DNA of 64,000 nt. Source: Octopus vulgaris. Lineage: Eukaryota. Below, one piece after another: positions 9,100-39,787 of the stretch. Each line of letters starts with the position of its first letter. The first letter of the stretch is position 1. Both the position numbers and the translations under genes were made by a program. The stretch covers positions 75,950,001 to 76,014,000 of the forward strand of contig OX597819.1 in the NCBI GenBank assembly GCA_951406725.2, written 5' to 3'. Under the pieces are notes generated by a model, which did no database searches, was not told the DNA's origin, and saw only the letters and a list, made by a program, of their open reading frames with translations.

Positions 9100-11721
9100 G
9101 CCTCCCTAACGCCATCACCCCAATACTTTTACTAAATATTGGGGGCCTGTTGCATCAAAATAGAAACAAAATTTCTTTCCTGAGAGATCTTACTGCATGC
9201 AATCAGGCCCTATGCATAGCACTTGTGGAAACTCACCTCAACCCTGATATAGAGGACGCAGAAGTACACATACCAAACTATGCCATACTGCGACGGACAG
9301 AAGGGAAAGGAGCCATGGTGGAGTTGCTGTATACATCCACGATGACCTCACACCCCAGGTCTTAATGACATACTCAAATTCGGTATGTGACACTTTAATT
9401 GTATACATAAGACAACATAATATAGTCATATGCAATACATATTGCCCACCGGATGCCCCAAATCACATAGGCAAGTTTGAAGATTGCCTCACAAGAATTA
9501 AAGAAATCCTCATGAATCTGGAACACCACGTGACCATATTTCTTATGGGTGATTTCAACTTCCCCAACGTCAAATGGCCCGAAGGTCACATACTCTCAGG
9601 AATGAATCATTGCAAGCAAGTACAGGTGGAGTCCCTGCTCAACCTCACCAATGTCTTATTCATGGAGCAAGTTGTACTCAAGCCAACTAGGGCGAATAAC
9701 ATTCTGGATCTCTGCTTCACGAACAATATGGACATCATTCATGATGTGAAAGTGACACTGACATCAGTTTCGGATCACAACATAATAGAGCTGTCTATGT
9801 TTGGGCCAAAAGTAACCAGAGACATACAGCCTAAAAGAAGCACCCGAAATCTCTCCAATCTGAACTTCCACAAAGCAGATTGGAAATCGATCCAAAAAGA
9901 GATCCTCAGAGAGGACTGGCTGGAATGTCTCTCCACACCAGACATTGACATGAAACTAGAATGTTTCATGTCTTCTGTGCAAGCCGTATGCCAGAAATAT
10001 GTCCCAGAGCACAAGGCCAAAACAAATAGGAGCAAGATTCCAAGAGACAGGAAGATCCTCATGAGACGTTGGACGAAGGTTGCAAATCGTCTCAACCAAC
10101 ATCCCAAAAGTAGCGAAACGTCCCGCCTAAAAACAACACTGATGGAGATCGAAAAAAGGCTGCAACAATCCTATGTGAAGGAGAAAGCAGACAAAGAAGC
10201 CTGGGTTATAAAAAACATTAAATCAAACCCAAAGGCCTTCTTTCATTACGCGAAAGAAACAGTCTCAGTGCACTACAAGATAGGACCCCTCCTCCAAAAG
10301 GATGGCTCCCTCACAGACAGTCCAACTATGATCAGTGAGATGCTGAATGACCAGTTCAAAAGTGTCTTTACCACTCCGTTGGAACACAGACAAGTGAACG
10401 AACCAGTGGACTTCTTTGCCGCCTCACCTATAACCAGCGAGGCGGTTACAATAGAATGTATTGACATTAGCGAAAAAGATGCCCTACTAGCCATAGATGA
10501 AGTGGACACAAACTCAGCTGCTGGTCCAGACGGTTTCCCAGCCATCCTCCTCAAAGCGTGTAAGAATACCCTGGCAAAACCCCTCAAGATTCTCTTCCAG
10601 AGCTTTCTTGCGAATGGCAAACTGCCAAGCAAGCTGAAGGAGGGAATAATATGCCCAATACATAAAGGGGGAAGTAGAGCAGATGCCAAAAACTATAGGC
10701 CTATCTTTCTGACTTCACACATCAGCAAAGTCATGGAACGGATAGTAAGAAACTAATCGCATTCCTTGAAGAAAATAACTTGCTGAGTGATACCCAGCAT
10801 GGTTTTCGACCAGGTAGGAGCTGCCTGAACCAGCTCTTACAGCATTATGACTGGGTGTTGAGGCAGTTACTCAACAAATCAAATGTGAACGTAATCTACC
10901 TTGATTTTGCAAAAGCTTTTGACAAGGTGGATCATGGTATGATATGCCACAAACTGCGTGACCTCGGCATAGCTGGAAAACTTGGAGTGTGGTTGCATGA
11001 CTTTCTGAAAGATAGGAGTCAGGCAGTAGTGGTTAATGGAGCCACCTCTGTGAACACACAAATAGCGAGCGGTGTTCCACAGGGCACTGCTCTTTATAGT
11101 GGCCCTCTCAGATATGCCCTCAAATGCCCGGATAGCCACTCTGGCCAGCTATGCAGACGATACGAAAGTCTCGCAGAAAATACAGAACCTCAGCGATGTT
11201 GCACACCTGCAGCAGGAGTTGGACTCAATCTACAGATGGGCTGAGGATAATAATATGCAGTTTAATGCTGAAAAATTCCAGGCCCTGCGCTACCAGCATC
11301 CAAAACTGAATATTAAACTTACAGGATACACTGGTCCACAGGGAATTTCAATCCCAGAGTCTAAGTCTGTGAGGGACCTGGGTATTGACATGAGTGATGA
11401 TACCTCTTTCCAAGTGCACATTACCAGGATGGCGACAAAGTGCAGACGACTGGCTGGGTGGATCCTAAGAACATTCAGAACCAGAGATAAGGAAACCATG
11501 ATGGTCCTCTGGCGGACATTCGTCCTCAGCCGCCTGGATTATTGCTCACAGCTATGGTCACCCACCAGTGTAAAATTAACAGCGGACCTTCAAACAATCC
11601 AGAGAAGATTCACAAATAAGATCGTCTTTGCAATAGCTCAGCTATTGGGAAAGGTTGAAACAGCTAAGACTCTACTCCTTGGTGAGAAGACGGGAGAGGT
11701 ATGCAGTAATATATGTCTGGA
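9100..11721 (+). pseudogene. LINE ORF2 (AP endonuclease + reverse transcriptase), frameshifted
   Basis: APE: ALVETHL, MGDFNFP, NILDLCFTN, SDHNII. RT: AGPDGFP, KNYRPI, QHGFRPGRSC, YLDFAKAFDKVDH, SGVPQGT, YADDTK, RDLGI, RLDYCSQLW. Confidence 0.95.
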
Positions 11722-11963
11722 GCATCAAAAGTCTTCCGTGGTGTGCGTCCTTTCAAATACAAAAACCGGATCACTGCTCGACACCCAACAGGCTCCATTT
11801 CATACTTGACTCAGTTCAAACACCTGTAAATCAGAAACCGCAATTAGTCCAGAGCTGTAATTTGCCACTTTATCTATAGAGATATAAATAATTGCACATG
11901 CAAAATTTCAGCTAGATCAAATAATTGCAAGTGGGTCAGAGCATTACTTATTGAACGTCCCTC

Positions 11964-12097: not shown

Positions 12098-12513
12098 TTT
12101 TTTCTAGTTTCAGCTCAGAGCTGCGGCCATGCTGATGCACCGCCGTTTTGTGCTACACTGTTATTACGACGAACCTCGTCTAATATGTGGCACTTGGTGA
12201 AGAATGGAGTTTGATATAGCTACTCTCATTTATACCTCTTGCCGTGAGGTAGGTTCATCTGGGACTCTTGACAGGAAGATGTCCAGCTTTGATTTAAAAA
12301 CCGCTACATCTACTTTGTGCAAGTTCCTCAGACTCTTTGGGAGAATATTAAAAAGCTGTGGGCCCTTGAAACCCACGCTGTTGCAGAAGCTGGTCCTGAA
12401 GCGTGATGGCATTGCTGGGATATTTGGCACTATGCAGTGTCGTCCCGTTCTAGCATTGGCGTAGCTTACAATGCCAAAATTTGGCACAATTCCTTCCAGG
12501 ATCTTCCAGACAT
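12098..12513 (-). mobile_element. 3' end of the CR1-group LINE (ORF2 C-terminus + 3' UTR), inverted
   Basis: VWKILEGIVPN...GPQLFNILPKSLRNL...FKSKLDIFLSRVPDEP continues ERYAVIYVW, which ends at 11720; A-rich tail. Confidence 0.9.
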
Positions 12514-13342
12514 CGGGTCTGTGGAAACTATCATTCATGACCATTTGGATATTCAAAAGGTGTCTGCAAGATGGATTCCCAGGTTGCTCACACCTTTCCA
12601 GAAGCAAGAACGCATCGAGTGCACAAGGATGAATTTGGAGACGTGCCAAGAAGATGAGTCAAAATTTTTCAAAAGACTGATAACACAGGATGAAACCTGG
12701 GTCCATCACTATGATCCAGAGACCAAAGCTCAGTCAATGCAGTGGAAGCACCGTGACTCACCTCCTCCAAAGAAGGCAAGGGTACAGCCCTCCGCTGGCA
12801 AGGTCATGCTCACAGTCTTCTGGGACCAGGACGGAGTAGTAATGACAGATTTCCTGGCAAAGGGTACCACAATTACAGGAGCCTATTATGCTTCACTTTT
12901 GAGGAAATTAAGAGAAGCTGTAAAAATCAAGAGGCGGGGCAAGATCAGCAAAGGCATCCTCCTCCTGCAGGACAACGCTCCGGTCCACAACTCGCTTGTC
13001 GCCAGATCAGAAGCACAGGCGTGCGGCTATGAACTCCACCCCATCCCTCCTACTCTCCTGACCTTGCACCCTCTGATTTTCACCTCTTCCCAGCCATGAA
13101 GTTGTTTTTGAAAGGAAAGCATTTTCCAGATGATGCAGCCTTGATTTCTGAAGTCACGTCGTGGTTGGAGGACCAAGCTGGGGTCTTCTACAAAAACGGT
13201 CTCCAGAGCTGCATCAAACGATGAGAGAAATGCGTACCTCTGGGTGTTTCCTATGTAGACAAAGACTAATAACTGTGCCAGGTTTCGTTGCTCTACTGCT
13301 ATAGGAAGTGGGTCAGGGGCATAACTTATTGAACGCCCCTCG
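12514..13342 (+). mobile_element. mariner (DD34D) transposase pseudogene, 3' part + TIR
   Basis: KVSARWIPRLL, ITQDETWVHHYDPE, VMLTVFWD, LLQDNAPVH, frameshifted YSPDLAPSDFHLF; TIR ...CTTATTGAACGCCCCTCG. Confidence 0.93.
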
Positions 13343-27646: not shown

Positions 27647-28651
27647 GTCTGTCTGTCCGTCTGTCTATCTGCCTGCCTGTCTCTGTCTCTCTGTCTCTCT
27701 GTCTATCTGTCTGTCTGTCGCTCTCTCCCTCTCTGCCATTCTCTCTTGTCCCCTCTTTCTATTTATCTGCCTGTCTGTCTGTCTCTGTCTCTTTGTCTAT
27801 CTGTCTGTTTATCTATCTCTCACTCGCTCCCCCTCTCTCACTTGTCCCCACCATTTATCTGTCGGCAGACAGATAAATAGATAGAAGGTACAACAATGGC
27901 TATCCTTAGTTATAGAACAAAGTGTCTGCAATCAAAAACAAAAAAAAAAGGAACCCTACCCAGCCCTTGTTTGGAGGCAGTTCCCTACTATATATTTCTA
28001 AGTTTACTTACAACATGCAAGGAGTTTTACCTCTGGAAAACAGCAAAGATAGTAGATCCGTCAGAAATTTAACTGTAACTGGGGAATGAACTGAAAGATG
28101 TTCTCTGGTGAAAGGATAGTGTGATTGCTAGCACGTCTGTTAATGAGTAAAGGTGACTGTAAGCCCTGTTAATGGCAAGAGTGTGAAGCAGAGAAAAGGG
28201 TAGAAACAATTACGTTATCAAATAGTTTGCCAAGAGTGACCGTGTTCTAAGCACCAAACTTTGTGAAGGTTCTGAAAGGTCAGTGGCGAAGTAGCGAAAT
28301 ATAAGATTAAAAATTAATAAGTAAATTATTACAGCTAAGGGAAATAAATAACATCCCGTTTCCCTACAACTTTGAAGATACATAGAAATGCTTGAAGATA
28401 CATAGAAATACTGGGTGTATAACAACATCCATTTGGACACGTCAGTAGCTACAACCATATAGAGCATGCAAATATATACACATTCATATATACACGTACA
28501 GAAATGTGAATGAATGTGAGTAAATTTATAGCTTTACTTACATTTTCATATACACCCCTCTCTCTCTTTCTCTCTCTCTATATATACACATACATATAAA
28601 TATATACGTATATACATGTATATGTATACACATATACATATATGTATATAA

Positions 28652-28693
<42 letters not shown>

Positions 28694-28697
<4 letters not shown>

Positions 28698-29566
28698 AAA
28701 TATTAAGGAATGACCCTGAGAAGGTCGTTCGACTCACTTGAAAAGAGCAGCTAAAACTCAAAACCGCAAAAAATAGTAATTCTGAAACTAGAGGAAAATA
28801 AAAAAACATTTATCCCCTTCAAACTTTGTACCCTGCAAGGTTTTAACATCTTCACGCAATCAAATTTAATTAAATTAAATCAAATCCGTTTACGCTTGGC
28901 TTGTCTCGTCAGCAAAGTCACTTGAGTTTTAGCTGCTCTTTTCAAGTGAGTCGAACGACCTTCTCAGGGTCATTCCTTAATATTTTGTTGAATGTATCAT
29001 ATAGTCTGCGACTATTTCTATTTTCTCACTTGACCGCTGGTGGCAGAAAATTTTTCTTGAATTTTTTGTTACCCTTATATTGATTGATTAATGAATGTTT
29101 GACTAATTCTGAAATTTGTATCAGCAGCTTATATTTGCTGCGGAGTAGATGGCGCGATTACGGTGAATTCGAAAATTTACGATATATAGACCCGAGGCTT
29201 AGATGGTGTAGCCTCGTGTATATATATCTGCCTCCTATTTTGGTGACTTTGCTGACGAGACAAGCCAAGCGTAAACGGATTTAATTTAATTTAATTAAAT
29301 TTGATTGCGTGAAGATGTTGAAACCTTGCAGGGTACAAAGTTTGAAGGGGATAAATGTTTTTTTTATTTTCCTCTAGTTTCAGAATTACTATTTTTTGCG
29401 GTTTTGAGTTTTAGCTGCTCTTTTCAAGTGAGTCGAACGACCTTCTCAGGGTCATTCCTTAATATTTTGTTGAATGTATCATATAGTCTGCGACTATTTC
29501 TATTTTCTCACTTGACCGCTGGTGGCAGAAAATTTTTCTTGAATTTTTTGTTACCCTTATATTGAT

Positions 29567-29570
<4 letters not shown>
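28694..29570 (+). mobile_element. Retrozyme/Penelope-like non-coding element: inverted segment + ~1.35 tandem units of a 482-nt monomer, in (TA)n
   Basis: 28694-28921 is the reverse complement of ~29243-29472; 28922-29088 repeats directly at 29404-29570; HHR inside. Confidence 0.88.
29245..29342 (+). ncRNA. Type I hammerhead ribozyme with extended stem II
   Basis: GACTTTG-CTGACGA-GACA..(AT-rich hairpin)..TGTT-GAA-ACCTTGCAGGGT-A-CAAAGTT; stem I 7 bp; GUA site at 29335. Confidence 0.85.
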
Positions 29571-29636
<66 letters not shown>

Positions 29637-29642
29637 GTATAT

Positions 29643-29695
<53 letters not shown>

Positions 29696-29824
29696 TCATA
29701 AACAGCACAAAGAGAGACATATACATTCATATGTGGACATTCATCACAATCACATACCACACAAACATCATACACGCACCACACATACACTCACACATAC
29801 TACATATACCTACATACTTATAGA

Positions 29825-30178: not shown

Positions 30179-31408
30179 CAGGGTTGGACAGGGAGAACGG
30201 GTGTTTTTGAAATGGCTATTACTAAGCCTCAGGGGAAGGGACATATTTTGCCTACAACAGTTACTTGAAGAATAACGAGTCTGTCGCAGCAGTTCAGCTT
30301 GAGCTTTGGCGCCACTTCAACATTCACCGAAATCAGGCTGTTCCTTCCCGTAACACAATCTTACGTTGGGTGAATGCACTTCGTACAAGAGGTATACTAA
30401 TGAATAAGAGACTGGTAGGGTTGCCACGAACGGTACGGACCCCGGAAACTGTGGAACCCGTCAGACAAGCTTTGATACGGAGTCCGAATCGCTTGGCTCA
30501 GAGATATTCCACTGAACTTGGCATCGGTAATCGCTCGGTAAGGCGTATTTTGCATGACAAACTGCATTTCCACTGGTACAAATAGGGCAAAAGTCGAAAC
30601 CATAGAACTATGCACAGCGGCTTAACTTAGCACATCAAATGGAAACAATTTTTAAGGCAAATGACAGCCTCATTTTGTTAATGAGTGATGAAGCCCATTG
30701 CATCTCAATGGCAGGGTAAAACAGCAGAACTGTCGTTATCGGGGTCTTGAAATTCAGAGAGAACTGCATGAAAGACCACTGCACAGCACAAAAGTGACGG
30801 TCTGCTGTGCTGTTGGAAAAGCTGCCGTCATTGGTCCTTACTTTTTTGAAGAAAATGATGGAAATGCTGTCACTGTGAACTCCCAGCGTTACATCGAGAT
30901 GATAAAAAACTTCTTTGTGCCTGAAGTACGACAAAAACGTATGCCTATTCGACGTGTGTGGTTTCAGCAGGATGGGACGACGGCCTACACAGACAGAGAA
31001 CTAATGGACGTTCTTTGTCCTCTCTTCTGGCGTTTGCCTCATTTCCAGGTTTGCTGACATTCCTTGGACCCCTCGGTACCCTGATTTGTCCATGTATGAT
31101 TATTTCTTGTGGGGAAACCTCAAGGCACGTGTATATGAGCATAATTCTCGTACATTGGATAATTTGAAGGAAGCTATTCGCATGAAAGTCGCTCAAATCG
31201 ACGGAGCAATGCTGGAGAGAGTGGAGGCCAGCTTCCAAGAAATACATCAATGAAAATGGACACCACATGATGAATGTTGTTTTTCACACATGATTTTGAT
31301 AAATGCTAATTCAATACAAATACATTGATGTTAATAAAATTTGTTTGCAGCTAAAATTAATAATTTTGTGGATTTTTCAAAAGCATCCGTTCTCTCTAAT
31401 TCACCCTG
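30179..31408 (+). mobile_element. Tc1/mariner-superfamily DD41D (rosa/Visitor-type) transposon, defective
   Basis: Imperfect TIRs CAGGGT..GAGAACGG.TG.TTTTGAAA; MSDEAH, VIGPYFFE, WFQQDG; after one frameshift WTPRYPDLSMYDYFLWG, giving 41 residues between the 2nd and 3rd D. Confidence 0.88.
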
Positions 31409-38570: not shown

Positions 38571-39246
38571 CTAATGTATTACCATATCGGTCCGATATGG
38601 TAATAATGGAATTTTTAAGAAATTTCTGTCGACCTTTTTTCAAGTAACGTGCATATTGTGAAAAAATTATATGGTTAATGGACAATATGTCCAATTTTTC
38701 GGCATATTTGGCATTAGAAATTTTTTCGTTTGCCCTTATTTATTAATTGTTTATAAATTTAACCTTTAAAGGTATTTTTTAATATGCTGGTCATTGATAA
38801 AATTTTTTTCGAAAAGAATTTTTTTGAAAAAAAATTTATCCTACATTAGATATAAATTTAAGCGTTCACTTCCGGACTCTCTCACTCTGTGAGGGCCTCA
38901 GTTCAAATCGCATGTGTCTCGAATGGGCTGGAGTATTTCTATTTTGGATGTATTTGGGGTACTTAATTGTGCTCATGACTTAGAGTTTGCTTCTTCCATG
39001 GGTATGAGTAAGTATCTCATTTATTTCTTTTGCCACATGTATCACTGACGAAGGGAAGGCTGTTATAAGCTAACCCTGAAATCGGTCCGATATGGTAATA
39101 ATGAAATTTTTTAGAAATTTCTGTCGACCTTTTTTCGAGTAGCGTGCGTATTGTGAAAAAATTATATGTCCAATTTTTCGGCATATTTGTCATTAGAAAT
39201 TTTTTCGTTTTTGCCCTTATTTATTGCCCTTATTTATTTGCCCTTA

Positions 39247-39252
<6 letters not shown>
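38571..39252 (+). mobile_element. Retrozyme/Penelope-like non-coding element: ~495-nt monomer + partial repeat, 5' fold-back at the HHR cleavage site
   Basis: ATCGGTCCGATATGGTAATAATG... occurs at 38586 and 39081; 14-bp fold-back TATTACCATATCGG-T-CCGATATGGTAATA; (TA)n on both sides. Confidence 0.88.
39038..39094 (+). ncRNA. Minimal type I hammerhead ribozyme
   Basis: TGTATCA-CTGACGA-AGGG..CCCT-GAA-ATCGGT-C-CGATATG; canonical core; GUC site at 39087. Confidence 0.82.
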
Positions 39253-39531: not shown

Positions 39532-39577
<46 letters not shown>

Positions 39578-39584
<7 letters not shown>

Positions 39585-39783
39585 AAGAATTCCAACCTTG
39601 TCTGATTTTCACGTTTTATTTACAATCTTATAATGATATATTATAAGATAATATATTATAATTGAATAAAATAAAATGAAATAGTAGAATGTTAAATATT
39701 CATTCTGATTGAACTAGTACTTTCATGCATTGAATTCTGCAATCTTCGGGTTCATGTAGTAGTGTTGACAGTCATGCTTCACA

Positions 39784-39787
<4 letters not shown>
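39578..39787 (-). mobile_element. Short HHR-bearing element in (TA)n
   Basis: Contains the HHR at 39710-39754; TA tracts on both sides. Confidence 0.65.
39710..39754 (-). ncRNA. Minimal type I hammerhead ribozyme (C4 variant or decayed)
   Basis: TGAAC-CCGAAGA-T-TGCA GAATTCAA TGCA-T-GAA-AGTACT-A-GTTCA on minus strand. Confidence 0.65.

Follow-up and report, generated by a model that had tools for sequence, protein, structure and literature searches.

The 877-nt insertion at 28694–29570 of the window (the whole 64,000-nt stretch of Octopus vulgaris DNA analysed here) lies between two (TA)n tracts and carries a hammerhead motif in a partly repeated unit. This raises the question as to what kind of element it is and whether it was written from a circular RNA, as proposed in a sequence-only reading that had called it a retrozyme with a rolling-circle signature. 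The anatomy described in that reading holds up well (Table 1). The direct repeat with a period of 482 nt is present, 28922–29088 and 29404–29570 being 100% identical over 167 nt, and the inverted arm is the reverse complement of 29243–29471, from which it differs by two substitutions and the deletion of one T. The substitutions include the G12 to A change that had been noticed in the inverted hammerhead copy (29320, mirrored at 28844). Likewise, there is no coding capacity for a reverse transcriptase (RT), the longest frame inside the element being at most 87 aa, and the unit is indeed rich in hairpins: those named earlier are present in the predicted fold, which beats 100 of 100 shuffled sequences when the unit is folded as a linear molecule (z −6.4) and has a z of about −4.7 (40 shuffles) when it is folded as a circle. 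Just past the hammerhead, a polypyrimidine run ending in TAG/CAG at 29355–29384 looks like a splice acceptor; the contigs examined show no spliced joint.

Table 1 Features of the insertion and its flanks, in window positions.
Feature	Position	Strand
Left part of the (TA)n target microsatellite	28579–28693	
Inverted arm, unit positions 155–383, 3' end at fixed site B	28694–28921	−
Hammerhead copy with G12 to A at 28844, predicted inactive	28822–28919	−
Direct arm, 649 nt or 1.35 units, 3' end at fixed site A	28922–29570	+
Partial unit (u316–482), identical to 29404–29570	28922–29088	+
Complete 482-nt non-coding unit, 35% GC	29089–29570	+
Type I hammerhead (long stem II, palindromic loop III; cut predicted after 29335)	29245–29342	+
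'Tail' of about 99 nt, from fixed end B (about 29471) to fixed end A (29570)	29472–29570	+
Right part of the (TA)n target microsatellite	29571–29696	

We identified the ribozyme by a core-plus-stems scan and by covariation across subfamilies. Scanning both strands of the window with the core motif of type I hammerheads gives two hits, the one in Table 1 and an unrelated one near 39045. The former has the core CUGACGA at 29252 and GAAA at 29320, separated by a 61-nt stem II region, a stem I (GACTTTG/CAAAGTT) of six Watson-Crick pairs plus a G-U pair, a stem III (CCU/GGG) enclosing the palindromic loop UGCA, and a GUA cut site. The canonical core, 7-bp stem I and stem III closing a 4-nt loop that had been read from the letters are all borne out by the scan. 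Rfam gave no hammerhead match, at the gathering threshold for the whole window or at the E-value threshold for the element, and returned only matches of (TA)n to miRNA models; the ribozyme was probably missed because of its 61-nt stem II region. All twelve core positions have been preserved in 59 of the 63 complete copies of the family described below. Among six representatives, a small and related set for which we fixed the structure ourselves, 7 of 14 base pairs change on both sides, spread over all three stems, while pairing is kept in 82 of 84 cells and loop III is palindromic (UGCA or UAUA) in five of the six. The suggestion that the ribozyme might cleave as a monomer finds no support in folding, since the active monomer fold of the window copy lies 2.1 kcal/mol above the predicted minimum and accounts for about 0.3% of the ensemble. 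A stem III dimer of this copy is predicted at −20.9 kcal/mol, and the available text of PMC4209133 describes dimer activity for hammerheads with such a palindromic stem III. For frog retrozyme dimers, the part of bioRxiv 10.64898/2026.07.22.740005 at hand reports that eight out of nine did not cleave.

The unit is one copy of a dispersed family in the 2.8-Gb host assembly. An exact 18-nt unit motif occurs 234 times in the genome (control, 0), and a 19-nt motif common to related families occurs 984 times. We mapped at least 93 separate insertions including the window locus. Best-match lists, which favour long or similar copies, supplied 63 of them, and the remaining 30 were taken from the motif list, on the first contigs only. 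The insertions comprise a young subfamily, with about 92–100% identity to the unit in the window, and one of greater age (about 80–90%); 45 loci are single-armed, 41 simple two-armed and 7 complex. Arrays reach 4.5 units, and 36 of the 147 arms extend past one unit into the next. At least two complete hammerheads in one arm are found at 7 of the 93 loci, so that the family contains the consecutive hammerhead-bearing units by which Li et al. define 'active' retrozymes; the window locus itself has a single sense hammerhead. A second, very young retrozyme family (L225–L244, e.g. L225 1033–9368), found via L171, has a 485/491-nt unit with about 70% identity. For this sister family, two-armed arrays of up to 14.2 units occur in our sample, which consists of its 20 longest-looking arrays, and the active hammerhead fold is predicted for the monomer. 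Matching contigs also come from runs bearing three other organism labels. Contigs of sequencing runs that are only presumed to represent RNA cover the unit; no joints and no molecule ends are recorded for them, some have loose ends in (TA)n, and they are uninformative about strand, molecule ends and circles.

The most distinctive property of the family is the way in which its arms end. Among the 147 arms at the 93 loci, the 3' end falls at site A (29570 in the window) in 70, at site B (modal position 29471, range about u377–391) in 66 and elsewhere in 11; the two sites are about 99 nt apart. Five of the A ends were assigned by eye, the alignment having stopped at an 11-nt duplication. A TA run directly follows 133 of the 136 A and B ends. 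At the 41 simple two-armed loci, one A end is paired with one B end in 34 cases and with an irregular end in seven, and like ends are absent. The P value for one-A-one-B pairing (2e-9) was computed with L093 counted as A+A; the second end of this locus is at u458 in non-TA sequence and is hence irregular rather than A. The sister family behaves similarly: 13 out of 15 two-armed loci pair A with B, and the remaining two have one irregular end each, none being like-ended. The A+B geometry is also seen in contig X10, whose run carries the label of another organism. The 5' ends, by contrast with these fixed positions, are scattered over the unit. The proposed check for permuted ends in other copies consequently gives a split answer, with variable 5' ends but 3' ends that are fixed at two sites in 136 of the 147 arms. 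Just 3' of the cut site there is an excess of 5' ends, with 17 against 5.2 expected at u248–263 (the best 16-nt window, chosen post hoc), and the adjoining u264–300 is also rich in them (27 versus 14.5); a pile-up exactly at the cut site (u246–250) is not significant (3 versus 1.5). In the sister family, 6 of 35 arms have a 5' end near the cut site (P 9e-4, one degraded arm left out). Strict A+B pairing, 5' ends near the cut site and the array-wide variants described below are footprints of this clade that can be counted. Our literature search found no paper on the 482-nt family or on A+B arm pairing in retrozymes; supplements could list related families.

These end positions bear on a first alternative, in which a satellite-like repeat was duplicated and inverted locally at the DNA level, or the structure arose as an assembly artefact. 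Palindromes and microsatellite flanks are prone to both, but unlinked loci on many contigs, with differing 5' junctions, have the same pair of 3' ends, as does a contig from an independent run, making this origin very improbable. Instead, fixed 3' ends with a tail, 5' truncation, an inverted arm and a microsatellite target form the footprint of Penelope. In the sections available of PMC8557442 (Craig et al. 2021), PMC11167929 (Frangieh et al. 2024) and PMC4209133, EN+ Penelope-like elements share with our family the partial tandems, the inverted 5'-truncated arm, the tail at one end, TA- or AT-rich targets, two internal RT start sites and a hammerhead with a palindromic loop III. They differ in that our family has no ORF and a period of 482 nt, and its tail measures about 99 nt (sister family, 104) as opposed to 30–40 nt. 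A Penelope-like protein has been reported to use two internal RT start sites in vitro, and to have both target strands cut and extended (PMC11167929, in part).

Could the repeat then simply be the pseudo-LTR (pLTR) of an autonomous Penelope-like element, with the copies representing truncated solos? Hammerheads do sit in pLTRs and 5' truncation is common, going by the portions of PMC8557442 and PMC4209133 consulted, and the genome contains thousands of GIY-YIG candidates (6136, of which 150 were scored and 30 loci inspected). However, the tandem period is 482 nt versus 3–6 kb, many arms run past one unit into the next one (see above), and none runs upstream into an RT ORF at the 93 family loci and 20 clade loci picked by the shared motif, as searched with three Penelope protein queries. 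At none of these loci is the unit the terminal repeat of a Penelope ORF, nor does an RT plus GIY-YIG frame lie between repeats. The permanent attachment to a Penelope ORF that would have spoken against a retrozyme is thus not what the copies show, and the pLTR explanation is already largely refuted and barely credible. With a unit that is non-coding, dispersed and tandem, and with a conserved hammerhead, the designation as a retrozyme is supported.

Comparison with described systems points in the same direction. Animal non-LTR retrozymes, said to be derived from Penelope pLTRs (Li, Clavereau & Pollet 2026, bioRxiv 10.64898/2026.07.22.740005), consist, in the extracts seen of that paper and of PMC7229834 (Cervera & de la Pena 2020), of non-coding low-GC tandem units with a type I hammerhead each, dispersed as monomers to multimers with a reported range of 51–972 bp that includes 482 nt, and a circular intermediate and mobilisation by Penelope have been proposed for them. 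They differ in having a canonical stem II of 4 bp where ours is a 61-nt region; the two fixed 3' ends and A+B arms in (TA)n were not found described for retrozymes in those extracts. Moreover, no homologous pLTR was found here. Non-autonomous Chlamys elements such as MRC1 (PMC8557442, in part) are also non-coding Penelope derivatives with pLTR-like partial tandems and head-to-tail multicopy insertions, but they usually share 3' sequence with an autonomous family, whereas no such partner was found here among three autonomous families, and our units carry a hammerhead. Plant-type LTR retrozymes, with a type III hammerhead in LTRs and a 4-bp TSD, do not match the type I topology, tandem units and TA flanks seen here. 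On the features that can be tested, the locus adds a new member to the animal non-LTR retrozymes already described.

Which enzyme might have mobilised the family? The genome contains autonomous TA-targeting Penelope-like families with RT plus GIY-YIG ORFs of 781 and 775 aa, and these have two alternative 3' ends 30–46 nt apart as well as inverted arms, with the exception of one 775-aa locus (L287/L288) with like ends. Neither these two families nor a GC-rich Penelope family have a hammerhead of their own in our scan, and none of the three resembles the unit in sequence. A repeat of 93 nt that follows the 781-aa ORF was considered as a tail and rejected, being an unrelated internal repeat. The 775-aa family (L290 975–8657) has a 4,270-nt tandem period and no hammerhead by scan, and the 3' end of this young family is also present in the window at 39576–39787 (−), 99.5% identical to L066. 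All 110 scored copies are 100% identical over 372 aa, suggesting that the family is probably still active; such young autonomous families provide material for tests in trans. The GC-rich family (L291 1–9901) has a period of about 6.2 kb and 76,919 first-look candidates. In the flanks of the motif-picked loci, the three Penelope protein queries revealed only neighbours, apart from a truncated junction at L136 and a tandem fusion at L121. In the latter (L121 373–1620, −), a 155-nt retrozyme arm with a stuttered 5' end, identical to the 3' end in the window, is joined at site A, without any intervening TA, to a 5'-truncated open Penelope RT-GIY-YIG frame belonging to the very abundant GC-rich family. 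This single case suggests that retrozyme RNA was present at a Penelope insertion event.

The remaining question is whether the template was circular or linear. The 'rolling-circle signature' does not follow from the window locus, given that a partial tandem of 1.35 units with an inverted front is an ordinary Penelope-like footprint (PMC8557442, as far as available); it is the family data that favour a circle. Within the young subfamily, units of one arm diverge by 0.85%, those in the two arms of one locus by 1.30% and those at separate loci by 2.49%; leaving out L012, the values are 1.31, 1.35 and 2.50%, and the within-arm value then equals that between arms. In 128 of 194 comparisons (66%) a minor allele is also carried by another unit of its arm, against 28 of 76 (37%) for the other arm and 1054 of 24174 (4.4%) for another locus. 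Four sister loci (L227, L232, L238 and L239) have locus-marking variants in every unit of both arms, and an indel scar at the cut site is absent from the 77 copies listed. The shared array variants, the long sister arms and the lack of a scar imply that each insertion goes back to a single monomer sequence, as expected of a circle. These data favour a circular template without proving one, as a homogeneous linear multimer also fits. The sister family is the best material for testing this. Circle-templated tandems were in fact already proposed in 2014 (Cervera & de la Pena, PMC4209133, available in part).

In the most serious alternative, the same family was written by the same Penelope-type enzyme from linear RNA, either read-through or partly cleaved multimers, possibly with template jumping. 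The 5' ends within about 15 nt 3' of the cut fit this scenario, even in arms that pass the cut several times (L229, L233, L234 and L236), although the excess may be due to cleaved linear templates, to circles reopening, or to RT stalling at stem I. In the longest array of the sister family (L225), two sites are mosaic, in an irregular order that one circle would not yield and that argues against a single circle; gene conversion or assembly polishing may be the source. The L121 arm, joined at end A to a 5'-truncated Penelope ORF, suggests template switching in that one case, and uncleaved RNA is the dominant substrate in vitro in the consulted part of PMC11167929, where the one Penelope tested inserted without needing its hammerhead to cut. 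On the other hand, copying of linear templates alone can only shorten arrays, yet the youngest family has, on many chromosomes, arms that hold 8–14 nearly identical units. The cut site is scar-free, and position-specific variants stay private to their locus: of the 43 differences counted between the last two units, only one turns up at another locus, a comparison of low power with few sites. Overall, a linear template is possible but the less probable option, and we would put the odds of a circle over a purely linear template at about 2:1.

Our preferred explanation, to which we assign a probability of roughly 60%, is that the locus is an insertion of a dispersed retrozyme family, likely written in trans by a Penelope-like RT-endonuclease and likely from a circular RNA monomer. 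The anatomy, the two fixed ends with their one-A-one-B pairing, the TA target and the covarying hammerhead are seen directly in the data, while the steps of the cycle are inferred from them. According to this model, a multi-unit locus elsewhere would be transcribed, and its hammerheads, probably folded as dimers via the palindromic stem III, would cut out unit-length RNA that is then ligated to a circle. The Penelope protein would cut both strands of the (TA)n target and prime reverse transcription inside the unit, with site A used from one target end and site B from the opposite one. Each cDNA could continue beyond unit length for a variable distance, and the two cDNAs would be joined back to back, giving 1.35 units plus 0.47 unit in the window locus. 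Counting against the model are the lack of a mobilising element among the three autonomous families tested, the active monomer fold of the window copy, which is not the predicted minimum, and the 5'-end excess, for which cleaved linear templates are as good an explanation as circles. As for the window locus, a read-through transcript of its plus strand is predicted to pair 227 of the 228 bases of the inverted arm with the hammerhead-bearing segment. With only one intact sense hammerhead and an inverted arm pairing with it, the locus probably does not make circles of its own; rather than a circle source, it is most likely a dead end, and by itself an ordinary product of the cycle.

More speculatively, and with considerable doubt on our part, the arrays could be records of rolling-circle reverse transcription, in which one hammerhead-made circle is copied by the Penelope protein from both (TA)n ends and reopening by the hammerhead often ends the copying. 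If so, the ribozyme would be both the maker of the template and a brake on array length in vivo, as opposed to the single Penelope examined in vitro, for which cutting was dispensable. The copying of circles by Penelope enzymes is how animal retrozymes are supposed to spread, a step for which we found no demonstration in the parts of the literature consulted.

Several other repeats were noted during this work. A second hammerhead repeat lies between (TA)n tracts at 38573–39252 of the window, with a period of about 495, a partial repeat that is 85% identical and one type I hammerhead near 39036–39100; it has a relative at L042. It was considered as kin of the 482-nt unit and dismissed, as there is no useful alignment between them. 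Frames that, by eye, look like LINE endonuclease/RT and mariner-type transposase fragments are present in the window at 9248–11809, 12407–13099 and about 30200–31000. Further unrelated hammerhead motifs occur at L039 131–532, L179 348–381 and L293 441–499 and 4905–4939; those of L039 form a near-perfect inverted pair in the same TA tract as a Penelope copy.
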